Positions 1 through 57,739 of a stretch of 64,000 bases of DNA are shown here, piece by piece. The notes under the pieces are model-generated. The model saw nothing but the letters and a program-made list of their open reading frames with translations, made no database searches and was not told the DNA's origin. Each line of letters opens with the position of its first letter. The stretch's first letter is position 1. Position numbers and translations under genes: made by a program. Source of the stretch: Psammoneis japonica (lineage: Eukaryota); NCBI GenBank assembly GCA_008632985.1, contig QPGO01000089.1:62001-126000 (forward strand), in the 5' to 3' direction.

Positions 1-1760
1 CTGACCTCGCAGCAAGTTGCCAGCACGCACCAGCTCGCATTCCTTCCAAGGGTCGTCAAGGTCATTGCATCCTGTCATGCAAAAACGGGAGCAGCGTTGG
101 TGACAATTCTTCGCCGCACCTGCCCACAAGGCAGTCTCCGCTCTTTGCATCTCCATTGATTGGGATTGTGGTTGGAATTGCATGAAGGTGACGGATCTCG
201 TCGCCTCGTCGCACATGACATTTGAAGCCACCCAGCTCCATTGCGTTGAGCAAAGGCTGAAGCATGGTTTTCAAAACCTTGTGGTGCTCACAAAGACTTT
301 GCCCCTTTTCCGACTTGCGTGCATTGGACTGCTGTTTTGCTGCGGAAGAAGACATTTTTTCAAGGTCGGGAGTGCATCCAAGAACTCTCCACTTGGCTTT
401 GTCGTGCCACTGTTTGAAGGCAACATGCGCGGAGGTCACTGTCACGGGTTCTCCGCAAGAAGATCCCATCGAAGCTGTCTGTCCCGTCTTGTCTGCACAA
501 ACTGTCAAACATTCCAAGAACTGTTTTAGTGGATCCTTGACTCTAGCCGAATGCGTGCTCCTGCACCACTCTCGGCCAAGACGCATTTGTCATCCAAGCC
601 CTTGGCAACGCACATGCCAAAAGGATTGTGTGTGTCCGCAAGATTGCTTTTGTCAGCCCACGTGCAAGTGTCAAGCATGTGTGATTCCCGCACCTCTTGG
701 AAGTTCCATCTTGGAACCATTGCAGTTTTCTCTCCCGTTCGCCGCTTGGAGTTTCCAGGTTGACCGGTGTCATCTCTCGTTCAGGTCCGGGGAACGATTT
801 GGAAAGAGTTTCCATCAGTGCATTGCGACGAGGCATTTTGGTCCCGAGCTTGAATGTGATGCCGCAATGTCTTTCGACAAATCCCACAATGTCGTCGCAC
901 AGGTGGAGCGGCGCTCTGCAGTCATCTGTCAGCTTGCTCAACTCCACACAGGCCCCGTTTGGGTTGCTCAATGACGACAAGCTGGCAAAGGCTGCCTCGG
1001 CGGGGTGTTGGCAGATGTTGCCCAATTGGCTGTCATCCAACAGAGAGGAAATGTTCCCTTGGGACGCTTGCGTGTCATCCGCTGCATTGCTGTCTGGAAC
1101 ATCAATGGTGACGTCCGGTGGCGCGGTGAAAGAGTTTGCTTCTGTGTCGCTGCTTTCGTCTGAAAGCATCTCCAGTGACATGAAGTGACTGTCGTCCGGG
1201 CCACAAATGGAGGAGAGAGGGGATGTGTTGTCTTCAAATGCAGGTGACCATGGAGCGTCAGAAGGTGGTTCGGACGAACGGGTGGAACCAGCCATGCGGG
1301 CATTGGAAATGGAGGCCCCTCGTCTCGATCATCTCAATCCATGTGTGGAGGTGTCGTTGGATGACGAGGAAGAATCGAGTCCCGAGAAGCCATTGAATGC
1401 AATTTGCATTCCCAGAGTTGCTCCGCCTTCCAACCACTTTGACACAAGCATCGGGCAACAAGTTGGGTCCCGTGCACCTTGTGACGCCAAGTTGGACATT
1501 CGCGAGCGACAGAGAGACATTGTGGATTGCGATTTAAGTGACCGAGCATGCGCTGGAAGGAGCGATGGCAACAGGGACAGGTGGTTGCTTCTTTGCCCTT
1601 GTTTTTGGACTGAGGAAGTTCCATTTTGGTGTTTTGGTGGAAAGAAACAGCAAAGGATCGGCGAGAACATTGTGTCAATGGTTGCGGCTGAGGTTTGGTC
1701 GTGTGGACGGTGTGTGTTGTGAGGGTTGGCGGGAAACAAGACACGAAATTGGCGCGAAAA
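1..1760 (-). mobile_element. Degenerate Plavaka-like (CMC-related) transposase pseudogene, running off the window start
   Basis: Minus-strand fragments: an N-terminal Zn-finger-like CPCCHRSFQRMLGHLNRNPQC, then 'VCADKTG...EPVTVT...KWRVLGCTPDLE...HHKVLKTMLQPL...GDAKSGDCLVGRC'. This resembles the Plavaka pattern YxDKT...EP...WRxLGY.P...YH...GD..SGD.L.GRY with Tyr replaced by Cys/His. Several frameshifts. Confidence 0.6.
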
Positions 1761-1993
1761 TGGTGATCATTGATTTTTTTGCATTGATGAATGCTTTTGC
1801 AGTTGCCTGTCAAAAGAATGCGTTGGGACAATTGAACACTTTCGTGTTGTGTGACAAATGAGAATGCAAAAATTGCCAACGGAAAGGGAAGAGCAAGTTA
1901 GAACACAGTCTTTGGAACATTTTGTGATCACCACTCACTGTCAATTCTTTAACTTGCGCGCGCAGTGAAAAGGCACGCGTTGTTCCACGTCCG

Positions 1994-4883
1994 TCAGTTC
2001 CACCATTGGGACGGTGTCAACGCATCAAAAACAACACCCGTTGTGCCACAACAGCCGTGCGAGTGACGTGCACCATGGCTTCCATTGTCCAGAACGATTC
2101 GTTGCTGGCACGCTGGCCTGATGACTGCTGGAGGAAACTGGCTGAGGTGGAGAGCATGGGACAAGAAGCAAAAGAGGAAAAGATGGAGGCGGACTGCAGC
2201 GCAGCTAAAAAAGAGCCAGGTCGATGGTTGGGCACCGGCAGGAAGGAACCATCCAACACCCCTGCTTGCAAAGAGACTGCATGGACATGTGCAGTTTAAT
2301 TGGCTCGCACAGCAAAGTCGCGCGGTGACTTGGGCGGAGAGCCCGCAGATGTCGAAGAAATTTGGGCGATTCATTTGATGATCATGGAAAGAGATGAACG
2401 GACCATCAAGGAGAAATGGAAGGAACTGTGGGAAACCAAATGCAACATCATGAGCCGGGTGTGTGAGAACATGCATGAATGGACCAGGGAAGTGAGGGAA
2501 TGCATGCACGCTGCACAGGCCATGTTCTCCATTCACGACAAGGACGAGCATTCAGGTTTGATCATCGAGCGAGCGAGGAATGCTCACAAAACATGCCAGC
2601 ATTGGAACTTGCTGGCAACACACCCGGAGAGGCAGGGAGAACAGCACGCAGCAAGCGGTTGGTTAAACGACCCAAGCGATGAGCTGTTTGATGAGTTTGC
2701 AGCTGGATCAAGGGAGGGCGAGCTTCGTCTGGCGATTGACAAGCAAGATGTTGATTCATCAAGCAGGGAATCAACCCTCAGCTTGCCCACATGTGGAATG
2801 GACCAAAGCGGGAATTGCGGACCGCTCGCATTGGACAACGGTTTGGGAGATGTGTGCAAACTGGTTGTGGACCAAAAGGGCGTCGTGTTTGATGCAAGGA
2901 AGCTAGCGCATTTGTTTGAGCGACAAGTGGAGCGAGACGCACCTTGCAGGTTGTGGCGGTGTGACGAATTGGAGTTCTTTGAATTGACACCTGGGAAGGT
3001 TGACAGTTGGATCTTGGAAAAAATCGAGAAAATGGGCTTGGGTGTGGGGTCCTTTGGCCATTGTGACAATGAAGAGAACAGGAGACTACGGAGACAACAT
3101 CTAAAATGAAAAAGGAAACGATTCGTCGCAATCACGTCGAGCGTTTCGTTGGGTGTGTCAGTGAGGCAACCAGCGCGTTTGATCGCATGACTGATTGCTC
3201 ATGTGAGGGGAGGCAGCGATTTTGTCATTGTCCATTTAGAGGAGGATGCGATGGAAGAATTGGATTGGAGATCGTTTTTGGCACCGAGTTTCTGTTGGAG
3301 TGCGCATGGAGCATGGATGCAAACTTCTGACCTGCAGTGATCAATGTTCATGTGTGATTCTGCACAATTGAAAGTTTCAAATGCAATGATCTGGTTGCAC
3401 ATCAAAATTGTCATTGACATTTAATTGTGCAATTCAAATTGAACAATTGGTCACTTGAACTGAAACAAATGTAACCAAACATGTGGTTTTCAAAGTCAAA
3501 TGATAAAAATCACTGATTGTGATGATTTGGGAAAGATTTGACAGTTGACACACACAAGGATGGGGAAGGCATCACCATAAAGTGTCAGGAACAGGTTTGA
3601 AATTTTGCAAAGACAATTTTCCTCGGAAGAGCTGTTGCACTGCATGATTGCAGACAGGAGGAACTGACAGCGACACAATGAGTCGAGGACGATGGGAAGG
3701 AGGAAGAAAGCGGCTAAGACGGATGCTGCAGGGGCAGAGGGAGCGCCCCACAGCCCGAGGCTTGTGGCGGCATTGCAGCGGACGGGGGCTGCGGCGGATC
3801 ACAAGTCACTGAAGAGAGAGGTGGAAGAGGTGGCACGGAGAGAGCTGTTCCCAAAGGCGAAATTCCTCATGAAGGCGGACATGGCGAGTGGTGGCAAGGT
3901 GTCACGGCCAATGCGCAAAAACACAGCAGATGGCAAGTTCGGCAAGTGCAAATGGGCGGGATCATGGGAGGACTGGGCTAAAAAAGCGTGCTCAATGCGA
4001 TCAACGCGAAAAGAAACACCGTGTGTCAGACGACAATGAGGAGTGCGATGAGTGGCAAGTGAGGAGGAATGGAGCATTTCCGAAGCGAGAACAGAAAGTG
4101 GTGCCACTGACAACTTGCTCGTTTTTCTGCAGTCATCACAACAGAAAAACAAGCAGAGGAAATCCAAGAAAAAAAAAGAAAGAAGCAAGGAAGCAGAGAT
4201 CCGTAAAAAAGCGGAGACAGGACAAAGCTGACATTGAGGAAGAGTTCATTGCGACTTGGGAGGATGGGACAGTGGACACAATTGTGATGGAGAAGCGAAA
4301 GGACAGAGAGGCGCGCGCATGGCTCTACAACAACGTCCTAAAATTTGCGAAGAGCACTGCGATGTGGAGGAGGATGGCAGAGTCCGGAAGCACCAAGGCC
4401 ACAGATCTGGCCACTGCAAGCGACAAGGCGCTGGCCCTGTTGATGATGGAAAACTGCTGGAAGGTTTGGGAGTGCAAGAAGATGCAGGAGTTAGATGAGG
4501 AAGGGAGCGAAGAGGAAAAACCGGCTCCATTGCACACGGACCCGTTGCGACAGCGTGACTCTTGGAAGGATGAAAGAACAAAGCGCTTCAACGATTTGCC
4601 AAAGGAGGCAAAGGAAGACAGGGCAAGAGAGCACGGTGTGCATTTTGACACATGGCACACATGCAAAAAGAAAAAGGAGACCGAAGAAAAGGGAAAAAAG
4701 GCGAGAACCACTCAAGAGCCAGCGAAAATGGAGACGAGAACGCAGGCAACATTGGAACTTTCTAGTGATGACGAGGAGGACAAAGAAAAAATGGAGACAC
4801 CAGGTGGCAGAGAAGATGAGGAGGAAGATGAAGCCAGCCAGGAAGACAGTGACGGAAGTGGAGGAAATGAGAATCCAGTGTGA
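1994..4883 (+). mobile_element. Degenerate accessory ORFs of the same DNA-transposon relic
   Basis: Broken ORFs 2300-3109, 3692-4039 and 3888-4883. The last contains 'ASDKALALLMMENCWKVW', similar to the SDEAFALL..EN..W motif I associate with TE accessory proteins, plus an acidic tail. Same TpA-depleted composition as 1-1760; the block ends at ~5520. Confidence 0.45.
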
Positions 4884-5878
4884 GCAAATTGGAGGTGCAG
4901 GACGACCAGGACTGCAGCATTGACTTGGCATTGATTGAGCATTGATTGACAACAGATGCCAAAAAGCCACAGCGATGCGTCTTGGTTGATTGAGAAGAGC
5001 TGACTGAATTCATTGTGTTCGCCCCTTTAAATTGCAAAACTGTCACATGATGTGAAAATTGACAATGATGTTGATTGTCAGCAGCTGTGGTGAATGAAGG
5101 CACATGCCAAATGGGAAAAGAGGGGGGCATTTGCACAGTTGAGGTTTGCTCCCATGGACAAAAAGATGTCTCCACAGTTAAAAAAAATTGGCTGTCACAG
5201 ATTGAATTTTTTTGCCAGCTGCGCAACCAATGAGGTTTGAAACTGCCAAAAATTTTGTCTGTCAAAGAGACAAAAATCACAATGAAAAGACAAAGCCTGA
5301 TCACTGTGTTGCGCCCTCTGATGTTTCCACAGCTGTTTTGTGCGGAACTGCGGTCAATGGTCAGAGCAACAAACAGAATGACACCTCTTCAATCTGTTGA
5401 GTTGCGTTGGGCTGTTGGTGGAGAGGCATTCATGGCCCTCTTGCGTGCGCGGCTGGTTGCGTCGGTGTGAGGCTTGTTGGTGGTCGCGTTTCTTGACTGA
5501 AACACGTCATTTTGGCACATTGAGTCGAATTAGTCCATCTCGCAACTTTCTCGCGCCTATGTTGTATGACACCGGTAGCTTCTTCAGCCTGCGCGCTTTT
5601 CACGAGCCGGCCGGCTCGCAATGCTTTGTCGTCTGCCCGCCGCAAACAAACCAACAGCATGCACAGCGCACTGCAGCATACCGGTAACAACAGCAACAGC
5701 AGATGCCGGTAGATGCTAGATGCAACCAACGAACTCTTCTGGCGAGAGCAAAGAACAACGCCGAGCTTGTAAAGCAAAACAAAGATCTAAATAGTAGTAG
5801 AGGTCGTTCTCTTTTGAGGCGAAATCAAATGGCATGCTGATGCTTTCATAAGTGCAAAGAACCTCTAGACACACAAAG

Positions 5879-17104: not shown

Positions 17105-18856
17105 CTAGCGGCGACTCATGATCCTCGCGGATCTACGCACGACACGCCCAGCATTAGACGAAATAAAGACACTGCCCGTTACTCCACCAAGCCTTGGCGA
17201 GCGTCTCAAAGTGACAGGTTGGGTTTGTTTCTCCTTGTTTCTCACAAGTGCAGCATCAGGAACAACATCCTCCTCTGCCCCTGGATCGTTGTCAGCAGCC
17301 ATGTCCTGAACGATGACAGTATCGTCAGATTCCTCGGCTACAACTCCAAGAACGACTTCCTCATCATCGTGTGCAGCAATAGCAGGATTGTCCATGGCTT
17401 CCGCAACAGCATCCTCCTCTGTCCCTGGATCGTTGTCAGCAGCCATATCCTGAACCATGACAGTATCGTCAGGTTCCTCGGCTACAACTCCAAGAACGAC
17501 TTCCTCAACGTCGTGTGCAGCAATAGCAGGATCGTCCATGGCTTCAGCAACAGCAGCTTCCTCAATGACAGGAGCGGGAATGATTGCCTCTCCGTCGATT
17601 GCTGCATCATCCACACCCACTGCAGGATCGTCCAAGGCTTCAACGACAGGTTCCTCTACTAGAGCAACAGGAACGCCCACCTCCACATCGTCTGGTGCGT
17701 CGTCAACAGTCACAGGCTCGTTCAAGGCTTCCCAAGGCTCTTCAACAACATCAGGAACTACTTTGTCCACAGCATTTAGATTGTTTTCCGTATCCTCAGC
17801 CGGTTCCACATCCAAAATATCCGAGGCATCGTCAGCAATGGGGTTGTTGTCCGTAGCCTCAGCGGGTCCAATGGCCGCTGGAGTCCGTACCCAGCCACGC
17901 CAGTGATCACACTGAAGATCAGAGTCCCAGTGATGAATGCTTTCTTCTTGACCCGCATCAAATTCAAGCATCGCCACAGCCAACTGCTCATCATTCAACA
18001 CGGGTATCACACGGGTGTAACGTGCGCGTCGAAGAACGCGTTTGGCAGGCACACGAGTTGGGACTGGAGGAATGTCACCAACGTGAATGTCTTGAGTCAT
18101 CATTCGGTCGGGTTTCCACCTGACATGCCTTTCTACTGGATCAGCAAGAGCCTCGACCGGTTCAATGGCCGCTGGAGTCCGCACCCAGCCACGCCAGTGA
18201 TCATACCTTGGATCCGTACGATAATCACAAATGTATCGGTCTTGTTTCCGGTCAAACTCAACCAGCACTGCAGCTAGTCTCTGATCATCCAATACGGGTG
18301 TCATACGGGTGTAGCGAGGGATTCGAAGAATTCTTGGAGCAGTCACGCCGGTTGGGTTGGGAGGAGCGTCACCAACGTAACGGTTCTTAAGCATCATTCG
18401 GTCCGGTTTCCATCTGATGCGCCCACGTCCAACTAACTTACGCTTCAACAGCAGCAGCCACGGGAATAGAAACCGCAAAGGAACGTAGATGAAGTAGAAG
18501 AACCAATACACGGTCCATACAACCAATGCAACCGCGAGAGTAGCCGCAAGAGCATCGCACACTCGATCCCAAAGAAGCGTGGTGAGGTCGTCAATTTCGA
18601 TAATTTGGCGGTACCAGAAATAGACCTTAACACCAATCATCTTCAATGAGGAGTGTGCGAATATCCCAGCATATAAGGCAAGGAGAACTTCACAGATCGC
18701 AACGACAAAGGGCACGAGAGCGTGAATCGTGCAGCGAATCTTGTCCCACGCTTCCCGAAGGAAACCGCCAACGATTCGGCCGTGCTTCTGCTTACCGTGA
18801 AATACGCGTAGCAGGAGATTGATAAAGAAAATGAGTAGTGCAATGTATGCAATCAT
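17105..18856 (-). CDS. Hypothetical membrane-anchored protein with internal repeats, an acidic stalk and a basic RRSxR tail
   Basis: Intronless 583-aa ORF with a hydrophobic N-terminal region. A 98-aa duplication (294-nt period) and a 48-aa acidic duplication (144-nt period). Ends LRRSPRLGG..GSVF....RVVRRSARI. Confidence 0.65.
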   Translation of the reverse strand: MIAYIALLIFFINLLLRVFHGKQKHGRIVGGFLREAWDKIRCTIHALVPFVVAICEVLLALYAGIFAHSSLKMIGVKVYFWYRQIIEIDDLTTLLWDRVCDALAATLAVALVVWTVYWFFYFIYVPLRFLFPWLLLLKRKLVGRGRIRWKPDRMMLKNRYVGDAPPNPTGVTAPRILRIPRYTRMTPVLDDQRLAAVLVEFDRKQDRYICDYRTDPRYDHWRGWVRTPAAIEPVEALADPVERHVRWKPDRMMTQDIHVGDIPPVPTRVPAKRVLRRARYTRVIPVLNDEQLAVAMLEFDAGQEESIHHWDSDLQCDHWRGWVRTPAAIGPAEATDNNPIADDASDILDVEPAEDTENNLNAVDKVVPDVVEEPWEALNEPVTVDDAPDDVEVGVPVALVEEPVVEALDDPAVGVDDAAIDGEAIIPAPVIEEAAVAEAMDDPAIAAHDVEEVVLGVVAEEPDDTVMVQDMAADNDPGTEEDAVAEAMDNPAIAAHDDEEVVLGVVAEESDDTVIVQDMAADNDPGAEEDVVPDAALVRNKEKQTQPVTLRRSPRLGGVTGSVFISSNAGRVVRRSARIMSRR

Positions 18857-21449
18857 GATGGGGGTGATAGTATCAATAAAGATAGATTGGTAATAACAGA
18901 GTGTTGTTTCAACAAAACTTGAAATTGTGTGGTGAGCGAGACGTGGCTCGTTGTTGCGGCTGCGTCACATTCGTGAATGCGTAGAAACTGTACTGGCGAA
19001 GCCCGTAGAAAACCCGACAGCCAGTCACGCTTTTCAAGTTTTGACGGGAAGTTGCGGCACGTTTGCGTTCGGTTCCTCGTAGGCTCTCTAATAGGTGAAA
19101 CAATCAGAGGCCGAGACTAATGTTGGATTTAGCCCTATCCATAATGAATATTATCTACTTTAGAGCTCTCTACAACGACACTCATTGTTACTTCACCAGA
19201 GTTCATTCTGCATACGACGCTTGAAACATTCGATCTCACTTTGACTTTGTAAAGATCGCCAGTCAAAAAGCAGTCTTGAGTCTTCAGCTTTCGTGCTTGC
19301 TCCAGCAGCATGACGCATTCATTTCTGTGCCAGTGGTGTTCTATCACTTTGCGTTTCTGAAAGGCAACTTGTCGATCAATCAAACAATTAGCGCCAGACT
19401 CTTTGACCGCGTTAATGGAAGTATGCTTCTTTTCTTTAGCACTGACGACAAGAATTAGTATGTGAACCCCCCAGTTGAATTCACTATTTGCTCCCATACA
19501 TTGCCTCGTGTACGTCGCAGCAAAGACAAGAACAAATCCCAAATGTCGCAACTTAGCCACACCGGATAGAAGATTCAGATAGTATTCCATTATAGGCCCA
19601 AGCACGTGATATATACCCATAGCCTTACTGGCTGTTGTTGATGCAATGAGAGGGGGGGGGGGATTTCTACCGGGCATGTCATTTAGACGGCAAACAAGTC
19701 GATTGACACAAAAACTCGGCGAAAATGTAGCGCCGCCAGACTCGGAGTAGCTGTTTGCTCCATTTAGCTACCGGTATTTGCTTCGTTGCGGGTTGGTATC
19801 AAGCTAGGTTTAACTGCTCCGACTGTACGGTGAAACTGTGCTCTAGGTGTGCTCTAGGAATAGTCGCGAAAAGTGGAACCTGCGATTGGGGTTAGAATGG
19901 CTCCTCCCGAGGAAAATACAATAGCGAACAGTCCTCTGTATCTTGCGAATAGCTTCAGACCATTCTTGGGGTTATCCGTCAATGGTTCGGTTGTTCCAAC
20001 AATAGTAATTACTTGCAATTTTTATCAGACTTCTTTGGTTGTTCCGTCAATGATGGTACTTAAAATCTCGAAATACTCAGGGTGTATCTTGCACATAGTT
20101 TCAGACTTGTTGGGCCATTCCGTAAATAGTACTTATTCTGAAACACCCACGGTGACCAGATAATATATCTCCTGTCGTGTCAAGGTCTGTCACGGTCTAT
20201 AAAAGCACAAAGGTGAATGACACAAATAATAGGTTGCCCATGTTTCCCAACCAAGAATTTTCAGATTGTCACTTCGAGTCAGGCCTCATACAATAACTGA
20301 TTCTTCTTGAGGAACTCGAGTTGACGACGAGTTGTTGGGTCTGTTGAAATGTTCTTATTGCATGGGTGACGAAGCAACAGCAACAGCATTAGAAAAAGGG
20401 GCACAAGCAATCGCGTCAGACGTCTGACGTCTAACACTGTTTGTTTGTTGCTTTTTTCTCCGTCTGCAGACTGGAATACAGCTGTCTGCTACAAATGTAC
20501 AGCAGCTTGATCTACTAGCATTCACATGCAACTCCGGATCCAGCTCTTGCGACATGTGCGTTTCACATGACAGAGGCACAAAGTGTAACGCACAAAATCT
20601 TGCGCAAAAATTGTTGCTTGCGGTAGAGCACCTTGCAGTTTCGCGTCTCGGATCGCTTCCATCCTTTTCTCTGGATATCTGTAGTGTGCGGCATGAAAGG
20701 GCTCTCTCAAGCGGCATGGGCTTGCTACCGGTACTGCATGGTCGCGCTTTTCCCCATGGTGGATGGTGGAGCTTTCTTTCGCTTGATGCGTTTTGAAGCG
20801 TGGATTTTCCATGTGGATTGATTCAATATCAGATAAAAAGAGTGCTCTCAGAACAGTAATCAGATGATAGTTGTTGTACTTAGTATCAGTAAAATACACG
20901 GAATATTGCGAGTTGTTTGCTCTATTTTTATCATACAATTTTTTTTAAATTTCACCTTTATATATCCATTTAGTTATCATAAAACGCATTCACCTTACCC
21001 AATATATATGTTGTGTGTTGTGTTGCACCGGTACAGTAGAGCGAAACCACGGTGAGGTGTTGTTTCCCCGAAAACAAGTTTTGACAACACTTGTAAACCT
21101 ATCGTAAGGGTAAGACTCGATTCAACAATCAACCAATCGATTAATCAGTCATGGTGGGATATGATGATGACAATCAAACAACGTGAACAAGGGTGTGACA
21201 ATGACGCACCAGTGGAAAACGAAAAGATGGTTTTTTATTGCGATTATGACATTGTGAAATAAAGTACCAGCGTCCAAGTACTTGGGTTTTTTGTAGTGGC
21301 TTCTTGTTTGGCTCTCATTCCGTTCAAATTTATACACTAGTACTATTTTTGAGAGAAGCTTCTTCTCTTCACCTTGGTCGCACTGTTCTTGTTCTTGGTG
21401 ATGGCCTATACACAATGAAGTAATGAGCATGCAAATTTCCGTTAGAGAT

Positions 21450-26708: not shown

Positions 26709-27265
26709 GTTGTTGTTGCTGATGATGAGTTATAGAATCAATACGGTTGCAAGTTGCTGTAAGATCAAACTGAGGACGATCGCTGTGGTACGGCGGTGTG
26801 CTCATTGGCTCACCACCCGCAGATTGTGCGCGCAAAAATGACCGCCGTTATTTCTGTACTGCACGACTGTAGAAATCTACGTCGTAAAGGTGGTTTCTGC
26901 ATGCGGAGGATGGCAACATGCCGGGTAGAACAACCAGACAGACCGCATGAGCTAGCTAGTAGAGATAAAATAGAATATGGTAGAGCTTGTTTCGGCTCGA
27001 CTACATTACTAGCTAGAGTAGGAACTAGGAGCCAACATCTCAAAGGAGTGTCTCTGGTTCCTGCTATCGCACCTCATGAATAGTCTCTATATGCACTGGA
27101 AACTCTCCGAATCTGAAATCAATTGACTTTGCTGCGATCATCGTCTAGGCAATGAACTACTTTTAGCCTGGTAGCAGAAGCAATCACACGGAACATGGTA
27201 CCATAGCTCACCTACCAAGAAAAGCTATGTATTCAAAGGTTAGTAGCATTTATATATTAATTACG

Positions 27266-30200
27266 TTAATCTTCAATGGTGATGATGGTATGCCCCATGC
27301 GGCGGCCATCTAGCCCCGTGTGTATTACCACCCCCAGGGAATTCGACTCAACAACTGACCAGTCGATAGTGATGGGTAGAATAGCGCCAGCTTGTGCAGT
27401 TGCAGGCGCATTGATTTGGGCGTTTCCAGCATTACTGTCTGGTGCCCAGGCGTACAAAAAGAATCTTGCATCGGGACCTTGCGTTTCATATGCGAAAACA
27501 TCGACAATGTAGACTTTAGTGCTATCGGGGTTGATCAAGTCCACCTCCTCATCGGACGTGCTAGAAGTGCTTCGCCCTACACGAATACAGCCCCCACGTT
27601 CTCCAAGAGTGGCATGGGTGCATTCCCACACATACAGATCGAGATCATGATTCCCGTCCGTGTATTGATCAAAAAGAGAAAAGCGTACGAACCCAACAGT
27701 TGGCTCGAACTCAAATTCAAAACGTCGAACCCCATCCGTCCTGTTAAAATTATAGCGGCGGACGGAACCTTCCTCCACCAGGTCCTCTTGAACAATTGCA
27801 GCGTTAAATCCATAAAAGTCTGCAGAATAGGATCCAGTGTAACCAAACTCAATGTCAAAGCTTACGGAGCCAGTCAAGTTATTGCCGACAATTTTCGTCG
27901 GAGCCTCGTACTCTTCGACAAATACGGCAATAGGGCTCCTGATGGAATACTCCGTTGTATTACCAACGCTGCGCCACGTCAATGAACCAAAAGCCCATTC
28001 ATCTGGTATCAAACCATTCGCCGAAGACAGTACAACCTCATACGTAGCCGATTCGCCGTCCGAAAGCGTAAGAGTATCGGGAGTAACAACGACACTGAGG
28101 CCCAAAGGTGCATCGATCGACACTTCAAACGTTTCCGTAGAATTTGATTCAGTCACACAAGTGACAGTTCGAACGATAGTCTTGGAGGCCAGAAACTTCT
28201 CAACACCAATTGAAGGATAGTTCAGATTGCTCTGACTCACAGTTTCGATATCAAATACTTCCTGTCTTTGACAGAGATAGAGTTGGGAAGGCTCCACGTC
28301 GCAAAGGAAGCCAATGTATTCAAAGAAGCCCGTGTCATACACTAAACCTGGATTAAAGGCTCCAGACGGGACAATATGCCCCGACCCAATATCAAAGGGA
28401 GTTGAGGGTTCATTGTCATCTCCAATGGTGATGTCTTGTCTTGCGGATGTCATAATGGCTGATTTCGCCATGGCAGCCGTCCACGTCGGATGAGCCTGCT
28501 TCAACAGAGCAAACAAACCTGCCACATGGGGAGATGCCATGCTTGTTCCACTCATGGTGATAAAACTATCATCGCCTGCTGCCAAAATGTCAACCCCTGG
28601 TGCAATTATATCGGGCTTGATTATGGAAGCTGCTCCTGCCGCATTGGGCCCTCGAGACGAGAAGGAAGCCACTCGATTTTCTTCTGAAACTGTCGAATAT
28701 GAGAATGAGACCGTCGTTTCATTTAAAGCGCTAACAAGAAGACTGCCATCATCGTGGGAAAGAAATAGACCGGGTATCGTCGTATTCTCTGCATTCATTC
28801 GCATACGACCAAAGCGATCTGGCTCAGTGCCGTCGTTGTACACAAGAATTACGGAAGCCCCTGCATTAGCTGTAAAATTAAACTTGTCAACAAACAGGCA
28901 GCCACCGCGAATTACAAGGACGACCTTTCCGGACAGATCCCCATTATTCAGCGCTTCACACGCATTGGGCGGGTCGGCTACCACCACTTCAAAAGTAATG
29001 TCGGTGGCATTTATATCCTCCATTCGAACCGGAGAATTCGCTTCTGTAGCAGAGTAGTTTCCAGCAACTGATGGTGGATTCAAAATCTCAATCATAGTCC
29101 CAACTACACCGTCATCTGTGCCTGCACCCACAGCGGTAATCCACGGTATCACAGCTGGAGATGAAATGGTGCGTGAACCTCCGCTGCCGCCATTCCCGGC
29201 AGAGGTCGCCACGAAAACCCCCGCATCAGCAGCATTCAAAAAGGCCAAGTCGTCAGCACTGGAAAATGTTATTGGGTTCAGGCTGCCAAAAGAATAATTG
29301 ATCACGTCAACGCCATCGGCGAGAGCTTTATCAATTGCCGCCACGATATCGGAAACAAAACAAGTTTGGCCTGTCTCACCCTCAGCTATCCAGCACGGCT
29401 TGTACACTGCTAGCCGAGCTCGTGGTGCCATTCCTGATATTCCTTTAACAATTTCACCATCTACCTCGGCTTCTTCGAGGAAATTCCCGGCAGCAGTCCC
29501 TGCTGTATGAGTACCGTGCGTGTCCGCATCGCGTGCAGATAAGAATTCGTTCGGAGCAATCCCTTGTCCATCGCCACCACAAGGGAGATTGCGGTTGGCA
29601 ACCTGTGAGTACCCCGCTACAAAACACTGTGCCGTTAGTAGCTTGTTGTTGCAAGAGAACGGAGCATCGTTGCTGTTGAAATTGTCAAAGCCAAATTCAC
29701 ACTCTCTCCCACTGAATCCCTCAGGTGGAGGCCCGTAAGGAACTTTTTCCCCCAAATCACCATTAATCGGGGTTGGAACGTCGCTAAAGCTCGAGATTTC
29801 AGGAATAATACCACTGTCAATTATACCCACAACAATATCTTCTCCACTGTATCCAAGAGACCAAGGTCCACCTGCACCTGAGAATCCTGAAAAGCTCGCA
29901 CTACTTTCGGTCTCGACGTGGCGAATTTCATCTGGTGTAACGCTAATCACATTTTCTTCTTTCGCCATTCTGCTGGCTTCTGCCTCCGTTAACTTTATGG
30001 AAGCACCATTGAACGCATACGTGTAGCCCCATACCTTCGTCCCACCGCATGACTCAACAGCCTCGTCTTGAATCCTCTCCAAGTACGAAACATACTCCAT
30101 AACTTTGCGGCTTCGTGTTTCAAGCTTACGGTTCTTGCTCGGTTTTGTCTCATGGTGTACACTCACTGGGTCGTCTACAAACTGAACAATATATGTTTTG

Positions 30201-30328
30201 ACAGAAGCATCGTCACCACCATCGGGGAAGGCCTTTTTCGCAATAGTTTCTGGTTCTTCCAGAGCAATCCAGTCGACGCCAAATGCCGCACGACAGAGGC
30301 TCAGCACGACCCAGAAAGAAAGCTTCAT
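27266..30328 (-). CDS. Subtilisin-like S8 serine protease, copy 1 (signal, I9 propeptide, S8 + PA, Fn3-like, PPC-like tail)
   Basis: Intronless 1020 aa. Catalytic motifs IIDSGI, HGTHTAGT and SGTSMASPHVAG; YTYAFNG propeptide; PA motif 'IRGGCLF.DK'; NLNYPSI. Confidence 0.93.
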   Translation of the reverse strand: MKLSFWVVLSLCRAAFGVDWIALEEPETIAKKAFPDGGDDASVKTYIVQFVDDPVSVHHETKPSKNRKLETRSRKVMEYVSYLERIQDEAVESCGGTKVWGYTYAFNGASIKLTEAEASRMAKEENVISVTPDEIRHVETESSASFSGFSGAGGPWSLGYSGEDIVVGIIDSGIIPEISSFSDVPTPINGDLGEKVPYGPPPEGFSGRECEFGFDNFNSNDAPFSCNNKLLTAQCFVAGYSQVANRNLPCGGDGQGIAPNEFLSARDADTHGTHTAGTAAGNFLEEAEVDGEIVKGISGMAPRARLAVYKPCWIAEGETGQTCFVSDIVAAIDKALADGVDVINYSFGSLNPITFSSADDLAFLNAADAGVFVATSAGNGGSGGSRTISSPAVIPWITAVGAGTDDGVVGTMIEILNPPSVAGNYSATEANSPVRMEDINATDITFEVVVADPPNACEALNNGDLSGKVVLVIRGGCLFVDKFNFTANAGASVILVYNDGTEPDRFGRMRMNAENTTIPGLFLSHDDGSLLVSALNETTVSFSYSTVSEENRVASFSSRGPNAAGAASIIKPDIIAPGVDILAAGDDSFITMSGTSMASPHVAGLFALLKQAHPTWTAAMAKSAIMTSARQDITIGDDNEPSTPFDIGSGHIVPSGAFNPGLVYDTGFFEYIGFLCDVEPSQLYLCQRQEVFDIETVSQSNLNYPSIGVEKFLASKTIVRTVTCVTESNSTETFEVSIDAPLGLSVVVTPDTLTLSDGESATYEVVLSSANGLIPDEWAFGSLTWRSVGNTTEYSIRSPIAVFVEEYEAPTKIVGNNLTGSVSFDIEFGYTGSYSADFYGFNAAIVQEDLVEEGSVRRYNFNRTDGVRRFEFEFEPTVGFVRFSLFDQYTDGNHDLDLYVWECTHATLGERGGCIRVGRSTSSTSDEEVDLINPDSTKVYIVDVFAYETQGPDARFFLYAWAPDSNAGNAQINAPATAQAGAILPITIDWSVVESNSLGVVIHTGLDGRRMGHTIITIED

Positions 30329-30549
30329 TGCTGGGAAGAGAAGCGATTGTTGGATTCCTTCAGTTTCTGCACGTATCGGTATTTTGTGAGACTAGATTAT
30401 GCAAGGTGTGAAGTTCGTCATGGCCAATGCGCGATTCTTTGATACGACCATACATGCGAGTAATGCAGTCGTGTTTACCAACGCGCATTCCGAGCGTTAA
30501 GCCAACCGTTGACAACCATCCAAATAGCTACAGCATTGAATGTTCTGAT

Positions 30550-33500
30550 TGACGTGACAGGAGCTCCAAAAATCATTGCATGTTGGGCCGCCCGCCTGGA
30601 CGTGAACCTCCTTTCCTCAACAAAGAAACGCTGACACTCACGCGATGTCATGGTCGACACCCCCCTTTGTGGATGGTGCACCACACAATGATTGCCAGCA
30701 CCAAACATAACATGCCACCAGTCATGGTGTCGACACCACGCTCCAGCATGAGAGAAAGCTCTCCCCTTGTTGCAGCACCTCTCTCTCTTGCACCATCTTG
30801 CACTTTTTTGAAGCAGCAGCTGCAAAGCGGCGCGGGGGTCGTCGCACACCTGTCTTGGTGTTGCACGTCTGCAAACAATGACCTGGAACGAGGTGCTTTG
30901 CTGTCAACAAGTGTTTTGTGAAGGAGCAAAAGTTGTTTTTCACTCATCACAGGCAGAGCCATGGTGGTGTGGTGTGTGGTGACTGCTCCTGTGGGTGTGC
31001 CGCACAAAGTCGGGGGCAAGTGGCAGCTCTCTTTTTTTTCAGCTGGGCTGGTGTGTGCGCGAGTGAGAAACCAAAATTGCTCCTTGTGTGCTGCATTCAA
31101 AATCATGGTGTGGCACTGCATGCTGAGAGCTGGCAGCTTTTTTTTCAACCAGGCTGTTGCTCCTTGTGCGCGGCAGCACAAAAAATCATTGTGTGGCTGC
31201 GGTGCAGCGCTCCGAGAGCTGGTGGCTTTCTTTTGTCAACCAGGACAGTGTGTGCTCTGTGTGAAAAGCCAAAGTTACTCCTCACAAGCTGCAGGCAAAA
31301 AATTCATGGCTCTGTGCCACCATGATGCCCCCTGGGGGCTGGGGCAGCTCTGTTTTTTCTCAACAAGGCTGGCTGGCGCCTGTGTGTGACACAGACTGCA
31401 AGCTTCAAAGGGGGGCTTCACAAGTGAGGCCAATGGAAAAACTCTTCCCCAGAATGATCAGTTTTTTTTTTAGACACTGCACCAGTCATGGTTGATTTTT
31501 TTCCCAAGAACAAAGCTGCCAAAGTTTTGCAGCAGGAAGGAGCATCATGTGGGTGGCACTGTGTGAGAGAGAGGGGAGAAGAGAGAGACAGTTGGCCCCA
31601 ATGACTTGATGATGTGGAACAAAGTCAGAGGAGACACTGTTTGATTGACATTGTGCTCCAAGTGAGGTGGTGAAAAATGACATCAGAGATGCCAGCTCAT
31701 CTTTGGGCACACACTTTTTTTGTTGTGGTGCTGGTGGGTGCAAGGGGGCACGGATGGTCAAAAAGAGGAGGTGCCGGGAACACCCCAGTGCTCAGCTGAG
31801 ATGCCTTGGTTTGTCTGTGGCAAAATTGCTGGCACAATGGAGCACATTGCCAACTTGTGCTTGCAACCTGCTGCAGCAGACAAGCTGCTGCCAGGCACTT
31901 GGTCAGAAGAGACTGCACTCTCAGAAGGGGAGTGCCACAGCCCATGGAGACACTGTCTCTGGCCCTTCTTTGGCACAATGCAAGAGCTCTTGCCAGCCAC
32001 CATCATGCAGCTCAGTTGTTTGCACAGGGGCAGTTGTGCCAGGATGGGTCAAATTGTTTTGGGGGAGAGAGGAGCAAAAGGGCACCAAGCTGGGAGAGCT
32101 CTCACCCCCTCTGCAGCACATGAAAAAAATGAAAGCACACACAGGGCTTGTTTGTTGCCACATCTTCCTTCAGAGTGAGCAGGCTCTGTTGTGCTCCAAC
32201 AGCTTTGGCAGAGTTGTGTGAGAACTTCCCTGTGGGGCCAAGCCTCATCCTTTTTTGTTGGTCACATCAAGAAGGCACTTGCACAGTGCGTGGTGGCAAA
32301 CCTCATGGCGATCCAGTTGAGTTGTGCAGCAAGCACATCGTTTCTTTGTGGCACTGCATCTGCATCTTGTGCTTTGCAATTTTGTGCATGAGCTCTCCTG
32401 GTGTGCTTGTGTGACCAACCTGGGCAATCTTTGTGATCACTGTGAGTCAAGGTTGCAACCACCTCCAAAAAAATCATTCACTTGACCACACCTCATCATG
32501 CAGCTCGGCTGACAGCTGCTGTTGTGCAGCACGTCTTTTTTGAGTTCTCATTCTTGCTTGCTTGCCCCACTGCCATTTTGTTTTTCAGCCCAGTTGACTG
32601 CTTGCATGCACCATCATGAAAAACAGGGAAAATGGAGCTCACCGGAGAGTCTCCAACTCCTGTTGCATCATTGTGCTGGAAACTCTCCAAATCAACTGAG
32701 GCCGCTGTGAGCCCTTCCACAGAGCTGGAGCATGTGCGAGTCTGCTGGTGGCTAGAAAAGCAAGAAAAGCACTGGAATTTGCAGCTGCAAAAGAATCACC
32801 AGCAAGCATGTGTTTGCTGGTTTGGGATGCCACAGTGTCATTGGCTGTGGCTGGATGGCTGGATGGCATGGCATGGCTGTGGAAGGGTGGGCTGGCCTGG
32901 CTGGCTGGTGGCTGAGTGGATCTTCTGTGTGGGGGTGACCATTTGGCTGGAACAATTCAACCAAATCTTTTTTTCAACGTTTGTTTGTGCCATCAGGATT
33001 CCTCGTGCTTTTTGTGTGACAAAAAAAGGATTCCAACTGTGGTGCATTTGCTGTTAAGATGTCATCAATGTTGATGTGGGAGGCTGCATCGGCGCATCAT
33101 TGTGTCCACAACCCCCATGGGAAGACATCTGCAATGCAGTGCAACTCCCCAATTTTGTTTTGATGAGCCGTTTTAACATCACTCCTTGTGTTCCTCATGC
33201 AATTTTTGCTGTGCTGTTGCTGCCTCCGACAGAGTGCAAAGGTGCCCAAGACCTCATTGAAGCAGGTTCTTTGTGCCAAGGTGAGTTCTTTTGTTGCACA
33301 TGCTTCAATGACAGTGAAGAAGGCAACTTGATGATTTTGTCCCCAGAAAATCGTTTTGGCTCACAAGCCACACTGGAAGGAGTGAAAAGGACATGATCTC
33401 TGATGTGCGCTGCACTTTGGCAAGTTCTTCTTGCAATTTGACCACAAGTCATTTTTCAGTGCATGTGGACAGCACCCTAGAAATGGGTTTGAAGAGATTC

Positions 33501-34700
33501 ACAGTCAAAGGAAGAAGACAGACAAGTGACATGTGTGGTGAAGCACACAAGCCCATGTCACAGAGCCCGGAAGAGGTGCCGCTGCTGATTTCAGCAGATG
33601 TTGAGACGGCATCTTGCAGAGCCAACATGCAAGCTAGAACACGTGCTGAAGGAGGAATTCATTGGCACAAACAAATCATTTCTTTTCTAAAAATTGTGTC
33701 CAGCAGCATCAAACCAGCAAGCAGTTCACACTTTGCTGGTCCACTTGACTTTTTCTGCATCATCTCCCTCATGTTCAGCATTTCCCACCATGGCAGCAGC
33801 CCTGCTCTTTCCACCATCGTCCACAGCTTTGTCAGCTGACCCCACAACAAACATGACATGCAACATTCAGATTCTTTGTGATCCAAGAATGTGTCATGAA
33901 ACTCACTCAGAAAAACTTGCCATCAGCAATTTCATTGTTTTTGTGGCAAATGTGTTGAACAATGGCATTTGCTGTTTTCTGCAAATCTCTGACTGAGGAC
34001 ATTGCCTGTTCATGCAACCAAGTGAGTGTTTGTTCTTGCACTTGCATGTCCCCTGCTCAAGCTGCCCAATCAACAAACATCTCAGTTGCCACGCACTTGT
34101 TGCACATGCACCGATTGCCCTCTGGCAGTGGGGCTGGTTTGCAAAGCACTTCTTTGGAAGTGCTCTCACACAATGGACTGGGTGTGATTCAAACCACACA
34201 GCAATTTTTCATGTTCAGAAATGTTGTTTGTCACTCCAGTCCCTGGGCACTTTTGAGTGTGTGTCTTCCATTCTTTGTCATTCCCTCTTTCACATTTCCT
34301 TGGCCTCTTTCTTTCATCTCCACCTCCTCTGCTCCCAACCCAGCCAAGCCTGATGATGCACAACAGCTGCAGCAATTCGCTGCACTCAGATCAAAGGAAC
34401 ACTCATGGAGCAATCTTGAAAGCATGTGCCAGCCAGGATTTCATTGAGAGCTGCCATCAAAGTGGATGACAATGGTGGGCAACCCACAGCAACCCCCCTC
34501 ATCCTCTGTCAAGTGTGTCTTTGGCAAAATTTGCACTTTGGTTGTGGCTGCAGGGTTCTTTGTTTTCACTTGCAGCCACTCTTTGCAATTCAGCCCCCCG
34601 GTTCATGCTGGCTGACTGCACTGCTGACTTGCTGCACTTGTTTCACCATTTGCTTCTCTCGTATTATGGAGGCAACATTTCCTTTGGTGTTCTCGATGAA
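30550..34700. mobile_element. Highly degenerate repeat or transposon relic, unclassified, between the two subtilase copies
   Basis: Near absence of both TpA and CpG, no credible ORF, and subterminal-like short repeats at ~30900-31390. Homology between the subtilase upstream flanks breaks down at about 30550. Confidence 0.55.
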
Positions 34701-35099
34701 GCGGACGAGATGAAATCAGGGAGACTGTTTGGACACTTGTTCTTGTTTTATGTGCTCTGTGCTAGCAGCTAGAGATTCTACTGTCCAATGCAATCAAAAT
34801 AAAAGGCCCAACAGAACCATCTTGCGCTGATATTCCGAATGTAAACTACTCGTACACGACAGCTAGTAAGTGTGGTAACAGAAGCAATCACACGTAACAA
34901 GGTACCATAAGTCACTCTCTAGGGCCCTAAACAAGAAACGGCTCTGTCCACGTACTAATAATACGGTAGAGCTATGAACTGATCCATAGTTATGGATTGA
35001 ACCGACTCCCTGGCGCGAATAAGTCTACCATAGGCAGCAGCTCGAATGAGTTGTGTAATATTTTGGATTGGATTAAGTAGTAGTTGGGTATTAAATATA

Positions 35100-38000
35100 T
35101 TACACTTGAATGGTGATGATTGTATGTCCCAGGAGGCGGCCATCTGGTCCAGTGTGTATTACCGCCCCAAGGGGCGAAGAATCAAGATTTGACCAGTTGA
35201 CAGTGATGGGCAGGACAGCGCCAGCTTGTGCAGCTGCAGGCGCATTGATTTGAGCGTTCCCAGCACTGCTGTCTAATGCCCAGGCGAACAAAAAGAATCT
35301 TGCATCGGGACCTTGCGTTTGAAATGCGTGGACATCGACAACGTAGATTTTGCTGCTGTCGGGGTTGATCAAGTCCACCACCTCATCCGACGAGGCAGTA
35401 CCACTTACCCCTACTTGAATACAGCCACCGCGGTCACCAAGAGTTGCTAAGGAGCATTCCCAAACAAACAGGTCGAGATCATGATTGCCGTCCGTGTATT
35501 GATCAAAGAGAGAAAAGCGTACGAACCCAATAGTTGGTTCGAATTTAAACTCAAACCGTCGAACGCCGATCGGGTTGTTAAAACTATAGCGGTTGAAAGG
35601 ATCGTCCTCCACCACTTCCTCTTGAACAGTTGAGCTGTTAAATCCATATAAGTCCGCAGAATAATTTCCCGTGTAACCAAACTCAACGTCAAAGCTTACG
35701 GAGCCAGTCAAGTTATTGCCGACAATTTGCGTCGGAGTTTCAAAGTCGTTTACAAATACCGCGATAGGACTCCTGATGGAATACTCCGTTGTATTACCAA
35801 CGCTGCGCCACGTCAGGGAGCCAAAGTGCCATTCATCTGGTATCGCGCCATCCGCCGAAGACAATTCAACCTCATACGAAGCCGATTCGCCGTCCGAAAG
35901 CGTAAGATTGTCAGGAGTAACCACGACACTGAGGCCCAAAGGTGCATCGATCGACACTTCAAACGTTTCCGTAGAATTTGATTCAGTCACACATGTGACA
36001 GTTCGAACGATAGTCTTGGAGGCCACAAACTTCTCAACGCCAATTGACGGATAGTTCAGATTGCTCTGACTCACAGTATCAATACCAAATACTTCCTGTC
36101 TTTGACAGAGGTAGAGTCGTGACGGCTCTAGGTCGCAAAGGAAGCCAATGTATTCAAAAAAGCCCGCGTCATACACTAAACCTGGATTAAAGGCTCCAGA
36201 CGGGACAATATGCCCTGATCCAATATCAAACGGAGTTGTGGGTTCCTTGTCCATACCAATGGTGATGTCTTGTCTTGCGGATGTCATAATGGCGGATTTC
36301 GCCATGGCAGCAGTCCACGTCGGGTGAGCCTGCTTCAACAGAGCAAACAAACCTGCTACATGCGGAGATGCCATGCTTGTTCCGCTTATGGAAATAAAAC
36401 TGTCGTCGCCTGCTGCCAAAATGTCAACACCAGGTGCAATTATATCAGGCTTGATTATGGAAGCTGCTCCTGCCCTATTGGGCCCTCGAGAAGAGAAGGC
36501 AGCCACTCGATTTTCTTGTGGGACGGTCGAATATGAAAATGAAACCGCCGTTTCATTCAAAGCTCTAGCAAGAAGACTGCCATCACCAAAAGAAAGAAAT
36601 AGACCGGGTATCGTCGTATTCTGCGCAGTCATTCGAAGACGACCAAACCGATCTGGTTCAGTGCCGTCGTTGTACACAAGAATTGCGGAAGCCCCAGCTT
36701 CAGCTGCGAAATTAAACTTGTCAGTAAACAGGCAGCCACCACGAATTACAAGGACGGCCTTTCCGGACAGATCCCCATTATCTAGCAGTTCACACGCATT
36801 GGGCGGGTCGGCTACCACCACTTCAAACGTAATGTTGGTGGCATTTATATCCGCCATTCGTACTGTAGAATCCGCTTCTGTAGCTGAGTAGTTTCCAGCA
36901 ATTGATGGTGGATCCAAAATTTCAATTACAAACTCAACTACACCAGCATCTGTTCCTGCAGCCACAGCGGTAAGCCACGGTACCACAGCTGGAGATGACA
37001 TGGTCCGTGGACCTCCTGCGCCGCCATTTCCGGCAGACGTAGCCACGAAAACCCCAGCATCAACAGCATTCAAGAAAGCCATGTCATCAATATTGGAAAA
37101 CGTTGCGAAGTTCAAGCTGCCAATAGAATAATTGATCACGTCAACGCCATCGGCAAGAGCTTGGTCAATTGCCGCCACGACGTCGGAAAGGACACACGTT
37201 TGTGATGTCCCTCCCTTAGCTATCCAGCACGCCTTGTAAACTGCAAGTCGAGCTCGTGGTGCCATTCCTGATATTCCTCTAACAATTTCACCATCTACCT
37301 CGGCTTCTTCGAGGAAATTCCCGGCAGCAGTCCCTGCTGTATGAGTACCGTGTGCGTCCGCATCGCGAGCCGATAAGAATTCATTCGGAGCAATCCTAGC
37401 TCCGTCGCCACCACAAGGGAGATTGCGATTGGCAACCTGTGAGAAGCCCGCTACAAAGCACTTTGCCGTAAGTAGCTTGTTGTTGCAAGAGAACGGAGTA
37501 TCGTTGCTGTTGAATGCGTCAAACCCGAAGTCACACTCTCTCCCACTGAATCCCGCAGGAGGAGGCCCATACGCAATTCTTTCCCCCAAATCACCATTAA
37601 TCGGGGTTGGAACGTCGCTAAAGCTGGAGATTTCAGGAACAATGCCGCTGTCAATTATACCCACAACAATATCTTCTCCACTGTATCCAAGAGACCAAGG
37701 TCCACCGGGACCTGAGAATCCTGAAAAGCTCGCACTATTGTCGGTCTCGACGTGGCGAATTTCATCAGGTGTAACGCTAATCACATTTTCTTCTTGTGCC
37801 ATTCTGCTAGCCTCTGCCTCCGTTAACTTTATAGAAGCGCCATTGAACGCGTACGTGTAGCTCCACACCTTTGTCCCACCGCATGACTCAATCGCCTCGT
37901 CTTGAATCCTCTCCAAGTATGAGACATATTCCATAACTTTGCGACTTTGCGTTTCAAGCTTACGGTTCTCGCTTGGTTTTGTCTCGTGGTGTACACTCAC

Positions 38001-46300: not shown

Positions 46301-46309
46301 GACAACACA

Positions 46310-46420
46310 ACAGGCACCTGTTGATGCTGCACAAACCAACAAATGGCTCACTTGAAAGAACAAAAAAAAAAACAGGCACCTGTTGATGCTGCGCAAACCA
46401 ACAAATGGCTCACTTGAAAG
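46310..46420. repeat. Tandem ~62-bp duplication
   Basis: acaggcacctgttgatgctgc(a/g)caaaccaacaaatggctcacttgaaaga occurs twice, separated by an A-run. Confidence 0.8.
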
Positions 46421-54946: not shown

Positions 54947-54951
54947 TGACA

Positions 54952-57700: not shown

Positions 57701-57739
57701 CAATTGTTCATGCTCTAGACGCCTGTAAAAGCCAATCCG

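Follow-up and report, generated by a model that had tools for sequence, protein, structure and literature searches.

The window analysed here is a stretch of 64,000 nucleotides from the diatom Psammoneis japonica (assembly GCA_008632985.1, contig QPGO01000089.1, positions 62,001 to 126,000 of the forward strand), and its subject is the near-absence of the dinucleotide TA from five parts of it, one of which is a Copia-type long terminal repeat (LTR) retrotransposon. When TA was mapped in 500-bp steps, five sharply bounded TA-poor blocks, A to E, were found. The observed/expected ratio (o/e) of TA, which is 0.625 in the flanking genic DNA and 0.079 over positions 1–5200, jumps from 0.0–0.1 to 0.5–0.7 at about 5500, 30500, 34500, 41000 and 59500. 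TG and CA stand at o/e 1.3–2.3 wherever TA is depleted.

Block A (1–5500; TA o/e 0.074, CpG o/e 0.74) continues past the left end of the window and has its right edge between 5001 and 5501. At 4200–4700 it holds a decayed coding remnant, on the plus strand, with 82 homologs at E ≤ 1e-3 (best 7e-32) from an uncharacterised protein family. The family comprises at least 82 proteins of about 160–350 amino acids with a conserved SDEALALL..EN.W..W motif, a stretch rich in lysine and arginine, and an acidic tail; at the curated level, no Pfam family was found in the 12 homologs examined. A plant NAM-associated domain in the open reading frame (ORF) at 2300–3106 was a weak lead only (score 0.88) and was not used. 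Block B (30500–34500; TA o/e 0.043, CpG o/e 0.22) lies between two subtilase paralogues. Block C (41000–47835; TA o/e 0.043, CpG o/e 0.11) lies to the left of the Copia element, and block E (54947–59500; TA o/e 0.060 and CpG o/e 0.27, counted over 54953–59500) ends between 59001 and 59501. Blocks C and E, on either side of the Copia insertion, are probably one unit. One sequencing contig joins 47744 to 55018 and skips 7273 bases; the joint may represent an allele or copy of C and E without the Copia insertion.

The Copia element itself, block D, occupies 47836–54946 on the plus strand and is partly TA-erased (TA o/e 0.23 and CpG o/e 0.90 over 47836–54952). Its LTRs of 285 bp, at 47836–48120 and 54671–54952, are 93% identical, and a 5-bp target duplication, TGACA, is present at 47831–47835 and 54947–54951. 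A gag-protease-integrase open frame of 1241 codons runs from 48936 to 52661 on the plus strand (610 homologs, the best 50–62% identical), and RVT_2 was matched at 53260–54723. Among the affected blocks, D is identified as a Copia element by its LTRs and target duplication, A holds a remnant of an unnamed protein family, and no recognisable gene was found in B, C and E. A Pfam scan of blocks A, B, C and E gave a credible match for none of 108 ORFs of at least 90 amino acids (three sub-threshold matches were attributed to chance) and revealed no reverse transcriptase. These four blocks contain no DNA copies of one another, and a comparison of 210 ORFs identified no shared proteins.

The genes between the blocks are ordinary and encode a kinase, two subtilases, a prenyltransferase, a NUDIX protein, an endoplasmic reticulum-vesicle/thioredoxin protein and a myosin with ankyrin and IQ repeats. 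A conserved protein of the window is at most 59% identical to database proteins, and the named best matches are from Epithemia, Trieres, Thalassiosira, Pseudo-nitzschia and Cylindrotheca, all diatoms. No deaminase family was matched in any scanned ORF of the window, in the blocks or in the genes between them, which agrees with an earlier first-pass annotation that had seen no candidate enzyme gene in the window. The subtilase genes on either side of block B (27242–30430 and 35076–38268; Inhibitor_I9, Peptidase_S8, PA and fn3_6 domains) are in the same orientation and are 88% identical over 3.2 kb. Internal direct repeats are present in the ORF at 17105–18964 (within 17253–18417; 167 and 270 bp, at 92% and 72%, respectively) and in the ankyrin/IQ ORF (within 61751–62179; 112 bp at 99%), and a single N stands at position 17059.

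Conserved tyrosine codons and the timing of TA loss

Tyrosine is the only amino acid whose codons always contain TA, and the fate of conserved tyrosines was followed in block D. Forty homologous polyproteins were aligned and their columns mapped onto the element by tblastn, a residue being taken as conserved when present in at least 80% of the homologs. At the 42 conserved Tyr columns, block D has 9 Tyr, 15 His (CAY), 13 Cys (TGY) and 5 Phe. Of the 680 positions at which any other residue is conserved, 638 were kept and 42 changed (Fisher p = 4e-28 versus Tyr); His was kept at 27/27, Asn at 20/20, Cys at 4/4, Phe at 28/29 and Leu at 66/68 positions. The same shift is seen in the composition of the open frame, which contains 0.73% Tyr against 3.87% in the homologs, 2.50% Cys against 0.90%, and 5.00% His against 3.51%. 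An alignment of the block A remnant (4200–4700) gave a similar picture: a nearly invariant Tyr is now His (CAC), and two positions of the ENYW/WEYK type are now Cys (TGC). Because TG and CA are in excess and conserved Tyr codons now read His or Cys, the loss of TA is judged, from these alignments, to be mutational, with TA converted to TG or CA and both products formed. The first-pass annotation had likewise read the TA deficit as loss by mutation. A:T>G:C change on TpA is seen here as an end state, with 28 of the 42 Tyr codons now CAY or TGY, and not as observed events.

The two LTRs of block D differ at four sites by TA versus CA or TG (GTAT, GTAG, GTAC and TTAG), at two sites by CA versus TG and at five sites by CG versus CA or TG. 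Since LTRs are identical at insertion and these now differ at TA sites, the process acts after integration. At 49902–49903, within a conserved Tyr codon, the window copy has CA and all 12 other covering contigs have TG, so that one ancestral TA was struck independently in different copies. Both strands are affected, as the plus-strand ratio TG/(TG+CA) is 0.45–0.54 in every block.

This strand balance argues against A-to-I editing of element transcripts by an ADAR- or ADAT-like enzyme, later fixed by reverse transcription. Block D is a retrotransposon, and a 5' U preference is common to known RNA editors (bioRxiv 10.64898/2026.01.13.699255, Discussion), both of which speak for such a route. The differences between the LTRs at TA and the absence of a reverse transcriptase from blocks A, B, C and E speak against it, as do comparable events in the alga Bigelowiella natans, described below, which occurred in single-copy integrated DNA. 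A further point concerns the 3' neighbour. ADARs favour a 3' G, whereas TAG survives here. Editing at the RNA level is accordingly considered highly improbable.

The sequencing contigs used for depth and variants came from one sample of one study. Summed contig depth reached 60,000–180,000 for block D and 200–700 for blocks C and E, with 210–700 in C, single contigs having 60–190, which indicates that the family of block D has hundreds of copies or more and that C and E are low-copy. The first-pass annotation had suggested that a process recruited to silenced repeats could underlie the TA deficit; this description holds for the Copia element only, and not for the low-copy blocks C and E. Among about 1430 variants recorded between the contigs and the window, transitions were in excess (A>G 280, T>C 288, C>T 270 and G>A 257, compared with 33–46 for each type of transversion). 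The same contigs bear on the possibility that the signal is an artefact, in which the DNA of the blocks has kept its TA but is so densely modified there that the sequencing platform reads the bases wrongly. In favour of this, the runs are from a single source, possibly the assembly's own data, and their library type is unrecorded. Nevertheless, the independently rebuilt contigs agree with the window (0–1 differences over 288–332 bp; 70% of sampled words), at one and the same site the products vary from copy to copy, the reading frames in the blocks are decayed, consistent with real change, and a real process of this kind was demonstrated with short reads in B. natans. A reading artefact is highly unlikely.

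Loss of TA was found to be separate from decay of CpG. TA was lost yet CpG kept in block A (CpG o/e 0.74) and in block D (0.90), and RCGY is over-represented among the residual CpG of blocks B, C and E (63 of 164 versus 422 of 2008 in flanking DNA; R, purine; Y, pyrimidine), a skew opposite to that of TA. CpG decay has its own flank rule, the mirror image of the TA skew, and these two observations together mark TA and CpG decay as separate processes. The link to DNMT5 and CpG methylation implied in the first-pass annotation is consequently not needed, as A and D are TA-erased while retaining their CpG.

Contexts of the residual TA

Each TA was assigned by its NTAN tetramer to one of three context classes: YTAR, RTAY, or the half-sites YTAY and RTAR. 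Direct counting in positions 1–5200 gave 25 TA, with 19 YTAR (TTAA 7, CTAA 5, TTAG 4, CTAG 3), six half-sites (CTAC 2, GTAA 2, ATAA 2) and no RTAY, which reproduces exactly the approximate tally made by eye in the first-pass annotation. The equal skew that it had reported for 41250–47830 was also recovered, with 10 YTAR, four half-sites and no RTAY among 14 TA. Flanking DNA of the window served as background (35,998 bp, 1549 TA) and contains 16.1% YTAR, 53.6% half-sites and 30.3% RTAY. Blocks A, B, C and E, pooled (20,885 bp, 75 TA), contain 46 YTAR (p = 1e-18 versus flanking), 28 half-sites and a single RTAY where 22.8 are expected (p = 6e-11). By block, YTAR accounts for 19/25 TA in A (p = 5e-11 versus flanking), 7/11 in B (with four half-sites and no RTAY), 11/20 in C (eight half-sites, one RTAY) and 9/19 in E (ten half-sites, no RTAY).

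Stop-codon avoidance makes a genic background poor in YTAR, and stricter nulls were therefore applied. Against non-ORF flanking DNA (627 TA; YTAR 19.9%, RTAY 25.4%), the pooled skew gave p = 6e-15 and block A p = 2.5e-9. Against the TG and CA contexts within the same blocks, which are the sources of any back-mutation to TA and of which 21–23% are YR, the p values were 3e-8 for A, 0.002 for B, 0.001 for C and 0.02 for E. Against the product of the flank marginals (29–33%), they were 2e-6, 0.04, 0.02 and 0.10, respectively. The YTAR skew of the residual TA is confirmed as lying beyond chance and is highly significant.

As a control outside the window, 79 related Copia loci were taken from metagenomes (435,263 bp, 21,982 TA); they come from the best 80 relatives, a choice that favours intact copies. 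YTAR makes up 17.6% of their TA (5–35% per locus) and RTAY 32.6% (18–46% per locus). Their TA o/e is 0.35–1.02 and none is TA-erased; TA erasure is not a property of this Copia clade. Many of these loci are strongly CpG-depleted (o/e down to 0.03–0.25, for example L074, L058, L021 and L024), and none has a TA o/e below 0.35.

Survival of each tetramer was expressed as its density in blocks A, B, C and E relative to that in flanking DNA. TTAA survived best (0.50), followed by CTAA (0.30), CTAG (0.24) and TTAG (0.22); the eight half-sites ranged from 0.012 to 0.096, GTAC stood at 0.016, and ATAT, ATAC and GTAT at 0. The flank rule put forward in the first-pass annotation, in which TAY (RTA on the other strand) is the target and YTAR is spared, is borne out by this order: 0.22–0.50 for YTAR, 0.01–0.10 for half-sites and 0–0.016 for RTAY. 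In the younger block D, YTAR is present at 3.7 per kb against 6.9 in flanking DNA, half-sites at 5.9 against 23.1 and RTAY at 1.7 against 13.1. These values correspond to survivals of 0.54, 0.26 and 0.13, which is the same order at an earlier stage. Within the element (47836–54946), YTAY outnumbers RTAR by 30 to 4, compared with 1.9:1 (7185 versus 3769) in the 79 relatives, a sense/antisense asymmetry; only nine of the 33 TA in its open frame are in-frame Tyr codons.

The values of -ln(survival) for YTAR, half-sites and RTAY, roughly 1.2, 2.8 and 5.3, fit two independent strand-wise targets in which T-A-Y changes about four times faster than T-A-R. They fit equally a model in which each flank multiplies the rate of the TA step as a whole. 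Of the 75 residual TA in blocks A, B, C and E, 36 have AA after them or TT before them (as in TAAAAA), versus 168 of 1550 in flanking DNA, and A-tracts seem to protect TA even where the other flank is unfavourable.

These contexts could also have arisen if TA were lost without regard to context and the excess of YTAR came from biased re-creation of TA, by C>T or G>A at certain CA or TG contexts, or from selection on sites. Blocks that are old and close to equilibrium may hold many new TA; those 36 of 75 residual TA have 3' AA or 5' TT beside them, and CAA is the commonest trinucleotide there. Against this, the TG and CA source contexts are only 21–23% YR; RTAY is found once among 75 TA despite RTGY and RCAY sources at 43–57 per kb; and the order is no different in element D, which is far from equilibrium. 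No hint of selection is apparent in the frame-broken blocks, where 0 of 108 ORFs had a credible Pfam match. An origin of the skew in re-creation or selection is considered very unlikely.

The products were also examined by context. YTGY plus RCAR reach 56.9–76.4 per kb in blocks A, B, C and E (42.4 in flanking DNA) and YCAY plus RTGR 43.1–51.2 (34.3 in flanking DNA). If flanking DNA represents the ancestor and CpG decay is symmetric, TAY>TGY accounts for 63–90% of the half-site losses, and the product classes in the four old blocks favour TAY>TGY. Of the conserved Tyr codons in block D, those after a pyrimidine (YTAY) comprise 8 Cys, 6 His and 7 kept, and those after a purine 5 Cys, 9 His and 2 kept. 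Because His is about as common as Cys at YTAY, the 3' pyrimidine cannot be assigned cleanly to the strand on which an A was changed. That the loss depends on the flanks holds whichever base changes.

The balance of products bears on an explanation in which the changed base is thymine. Oxidation of the TET/JBP type, or another modification of T in 5'-R-T-A-3' (for example to 5-formyluracil), would mispair with G and give T>C, and A>G would be that change as read from the opposite strand. Thymine at T-A steps is modified in other protists, a finished sequence cannot separate A>G from T>C on the opposite strand, and the conserved Tyr codons gave 15 His versus 13 Cys. Neither an enzyme of this type nor a modified base was seen, however, and the product classes lean to TAY>TGY over TAY>CAY, though R-T*-A mirrors that event; the authors of the B. 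natans study also favour adenine deamination. A change at thymine is unlikely, though less remote than RNA editing or an artefact.

A second alternative, raised in the first-pass annotation, is an error-prone polymerase or patch repair recruited to heterochromatin and making A>G errors at TA, as polymerase eta does at WA (W, A or T). TA belongs to the WA motif, and the hotspots of polymerase eta are TA and AA; the regional limits of the blocks could moreover reflect chromatin-bound repair. Yet AA and TT stand at o/e 1.1–1.5 in the blocks, so that AA is not depleted and the WA>WG signature is absent. The base 3' of the A has the strongest effect, although the polymerase has not yet made it, and erasure is nearly total (TA o/e 0.04). 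The undepleted AA and the main effect of the 3' base count against this proposal, which is now regarded as quite improbable.

Comparison with known hypermutation systems

A DNA-level, TpA-specific process of the kind suggested in the first-pass annotation has since been reported in B. natans, with an ADAT2 homologue as candidate. In mutation-accumulation lines of this alga, two integrated viral regions accounted for 231 of 302 nuclear mutations (Mettrop et al., bioRxiv 10.64898/2026.01.13.699255). Of these 231 de novo mutations, 230 were A>G or T>C, all 230 on TpA, at about 6e-7 per site per generation, and TA-poor clusters rich in CA and TG elsewhere in the genome were enriched for transposon domains (bioRxiv 10.64898/2026.01.13.699255). 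Adenine deamination is favoured in that report, the ADAT2 homologue being a candidate. Its main text gives no flanking rule, the words context, flanking, trinucleotide, tetranucleotide and logo being absent from it (bioRxiv 10.64898/2026.01.13.699255). As far as the preprint describes them, the B. natans regions resemble the blocks of the window in the conversion of TpA to TpG and CpA on both strands, in being bounded regions, probably non-host here, beside normal genes, in the depletion of TA with gain of CA and TG, and in enrichment for transposon-type genes. They differ in host (a chlorarachniophyte versus a diatom) and in extent, TA o/e being 0.45 in the nucleocytoplasmic large DNA virus region versus 0.04–0.07 here. 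A high-copy Copia element is among the targets in the window, where a flank rule is also seen, and the window holds an end state whereas de novo events were recorded in B. natans.

Repeat-induced point mutation (RIP) of fungi shares with the present case a transition hypermutation specific for a dinucleotide, sharp regional limits, the degradation of repeated or foreign DNA and the ruin of reading frames. In RIP, C is changed to T mainly at CpA, so that TpA is created. The direction here is the opposite, with TpA lost, CpA and TpG gained and G+C raised, and blocks C and E are low-copy, which lends no support to a dependence on duplication. The signature of RIP (C>T at CpA, an excess of TpA and lower G+C) was not found in the blocks.

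The likeness to TadA and ADAT enzymes was proposed in the first-pass annotation for the TAY target; the 5' neighbour of the A edited by these enzymes is U or T. TadA acts in the UAC(G) anticodon loop of tRNA-Arg; the substrates of eukaryotic ADAT2/3 mostly have a purine after A34, and fungal A-to-I editing of mRNA favours a 3' purine. Here only TA is depleted, with AA at o/e 1.1–1.4, CA in excess and AT at 0.7–1.06, in keeping with a 5' T. The likeness does not extend to the 3' side. TAC and TAT were equally erased (0.3–0.6 and 0.2–0.6 per 1000, versus 12.2 and 12.4), such that any 3' pyrimidine sufficed and no restriction to a 3' C was seen. A TadA-derived editor has been described as acting on A within YAC (PMC13109818), but CA, the other half of YAC, is gained here and not lost. 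Adenine base editors have also been described as broadly context-compatible for adenine, and the same source calls amphioxus ADAT2 (BjADAT2) the only natural enzyme for which deamination of adenine in DNA has been shown, with a preference for GAA and for hairpin loops (PMC10354150). With TAT lost as fully as TAC, His about as frequent as Cys at YTAY and a natural DNA-editing ADAT2 that prefers GAA, the proposed likeness is not supported beyond the 5' T, and the link of the TA signature to TadA/ADAT enzymes is weak. The signature is like that of a 5'-T-specific adenine deaminase and falls outside the TadA type. It may reflect a deaminase that is new or has been retargeted, or else a chemistry directed at thymine and seen from the opposite strand.

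The hypermutation of animal retroelements by APOBEC3 and ADAR enzymes resembles the present case in deaminase-type editing, in the inactivation of mobile elements and in leaving a neighbour-base signature. The substrates of these enzymes are single-stranded cDNA or double-stranded RNA during replication, and only one strand is marked. Here both strands are changed and change goes on after integration, and the base change and context of these enzymes are not those found in the blocks. One-strand changes of the ADAR type, made before integration, were not seen in the window, where the strands are balanced and the LTR pair differs at TA.

Interpretation and reach

The blocks of the window are probably decayed mobile or foreign DNA that has undergone a region-targeted, flank-dependent hypermutation of TpA to TpG and CpA at the DNA level, with the same signature as in B. 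natans. In the order given by the survivals, RTAY is lost first, half-sites next and YTAR last, TTAA and TA beside A-runs being the slowest of all. Because the rate depends on the flanks, the surviving TA would simply be the slowest class. In the simplest kinetic model, A would be changed to G on either strand in 5'-T-A-N-3', a few-fold faster if N is a pyrimidine, most likely through conversion of A to inosine. We infer from the products and contexts that the changed base is adenine, that the chemistry may be deamination and that the process may serve as a genome defence.

Several points weigh against this interpretation. The material is one window of one genome with one sequencing sample, and neither an enzyme nor de novo events were seen in it. 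The estimates of survival and products for blocks A, B, C and E assume that flanking DNA is a fair proxy for their ancestral sequences; in single blocks the flank signal is weak under the strictest null, as in E (p = 0.10). The copies of D were probably under selection while the family spread, and the His and Cys counts are to that extent not neutral. A strict same-strand T-A*-Y rule predicts mostly Cys at YTAY, where Cys and His stand at 8:6; this split is marginally compatible with a ratio of about 4:1 and agrees equally well with a duplex-level effect of the flanks on either base. Finally, since the choice of the best 80 relatives favours intact copies, the 79 control loci cannot show that other hosts lack the process.

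A wider proposal is possible, although on balance doubtful: a diatom 'adenine RIP', whose enzyme would deaminate adenine in DNA, or modify bases at TpA in a related way, and would favour 5'-T-A-Y. Without any need for CpG methylation, it would be recruited to integrated DNA of foreign and mobile origin, where it would cause the near-total loss of TA and hence of Tyr codons. The system would be common to B. natans and would amount to a defence across the stramenopile, alveolate and rhizarian (SAR) lineages, and the flank rule would be the fingerprint of its enzyme.

So far, the only description of hypermutation directed at TpA in foreign DNA is a single preprint, on a rhizarian alga, and a literature search aimed at diatoms found no report of it there. 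The window extends the known effect to a TA o/e as low as 0.04 and to Tyr codons converted to His or Cys. The flank rule appears to be new information. With RTAY lost first, YTAR last and a 3' A the most protective, it makes a biochemical prediction for a candidate deaminase, thymine modifier or polymerase. For annotation, DNA that is poor in TA, rich in TG and CA and left with a YTAR residue provides a signature of old invaded DNA in protist genomes, and this TA-poor state accounts for the long spurious ORFs in such DNA. The window suggests that the end state of the B. natans process is present in a second, distant and ecologically major lineage, the diatoms, which hints at a widespread defence.

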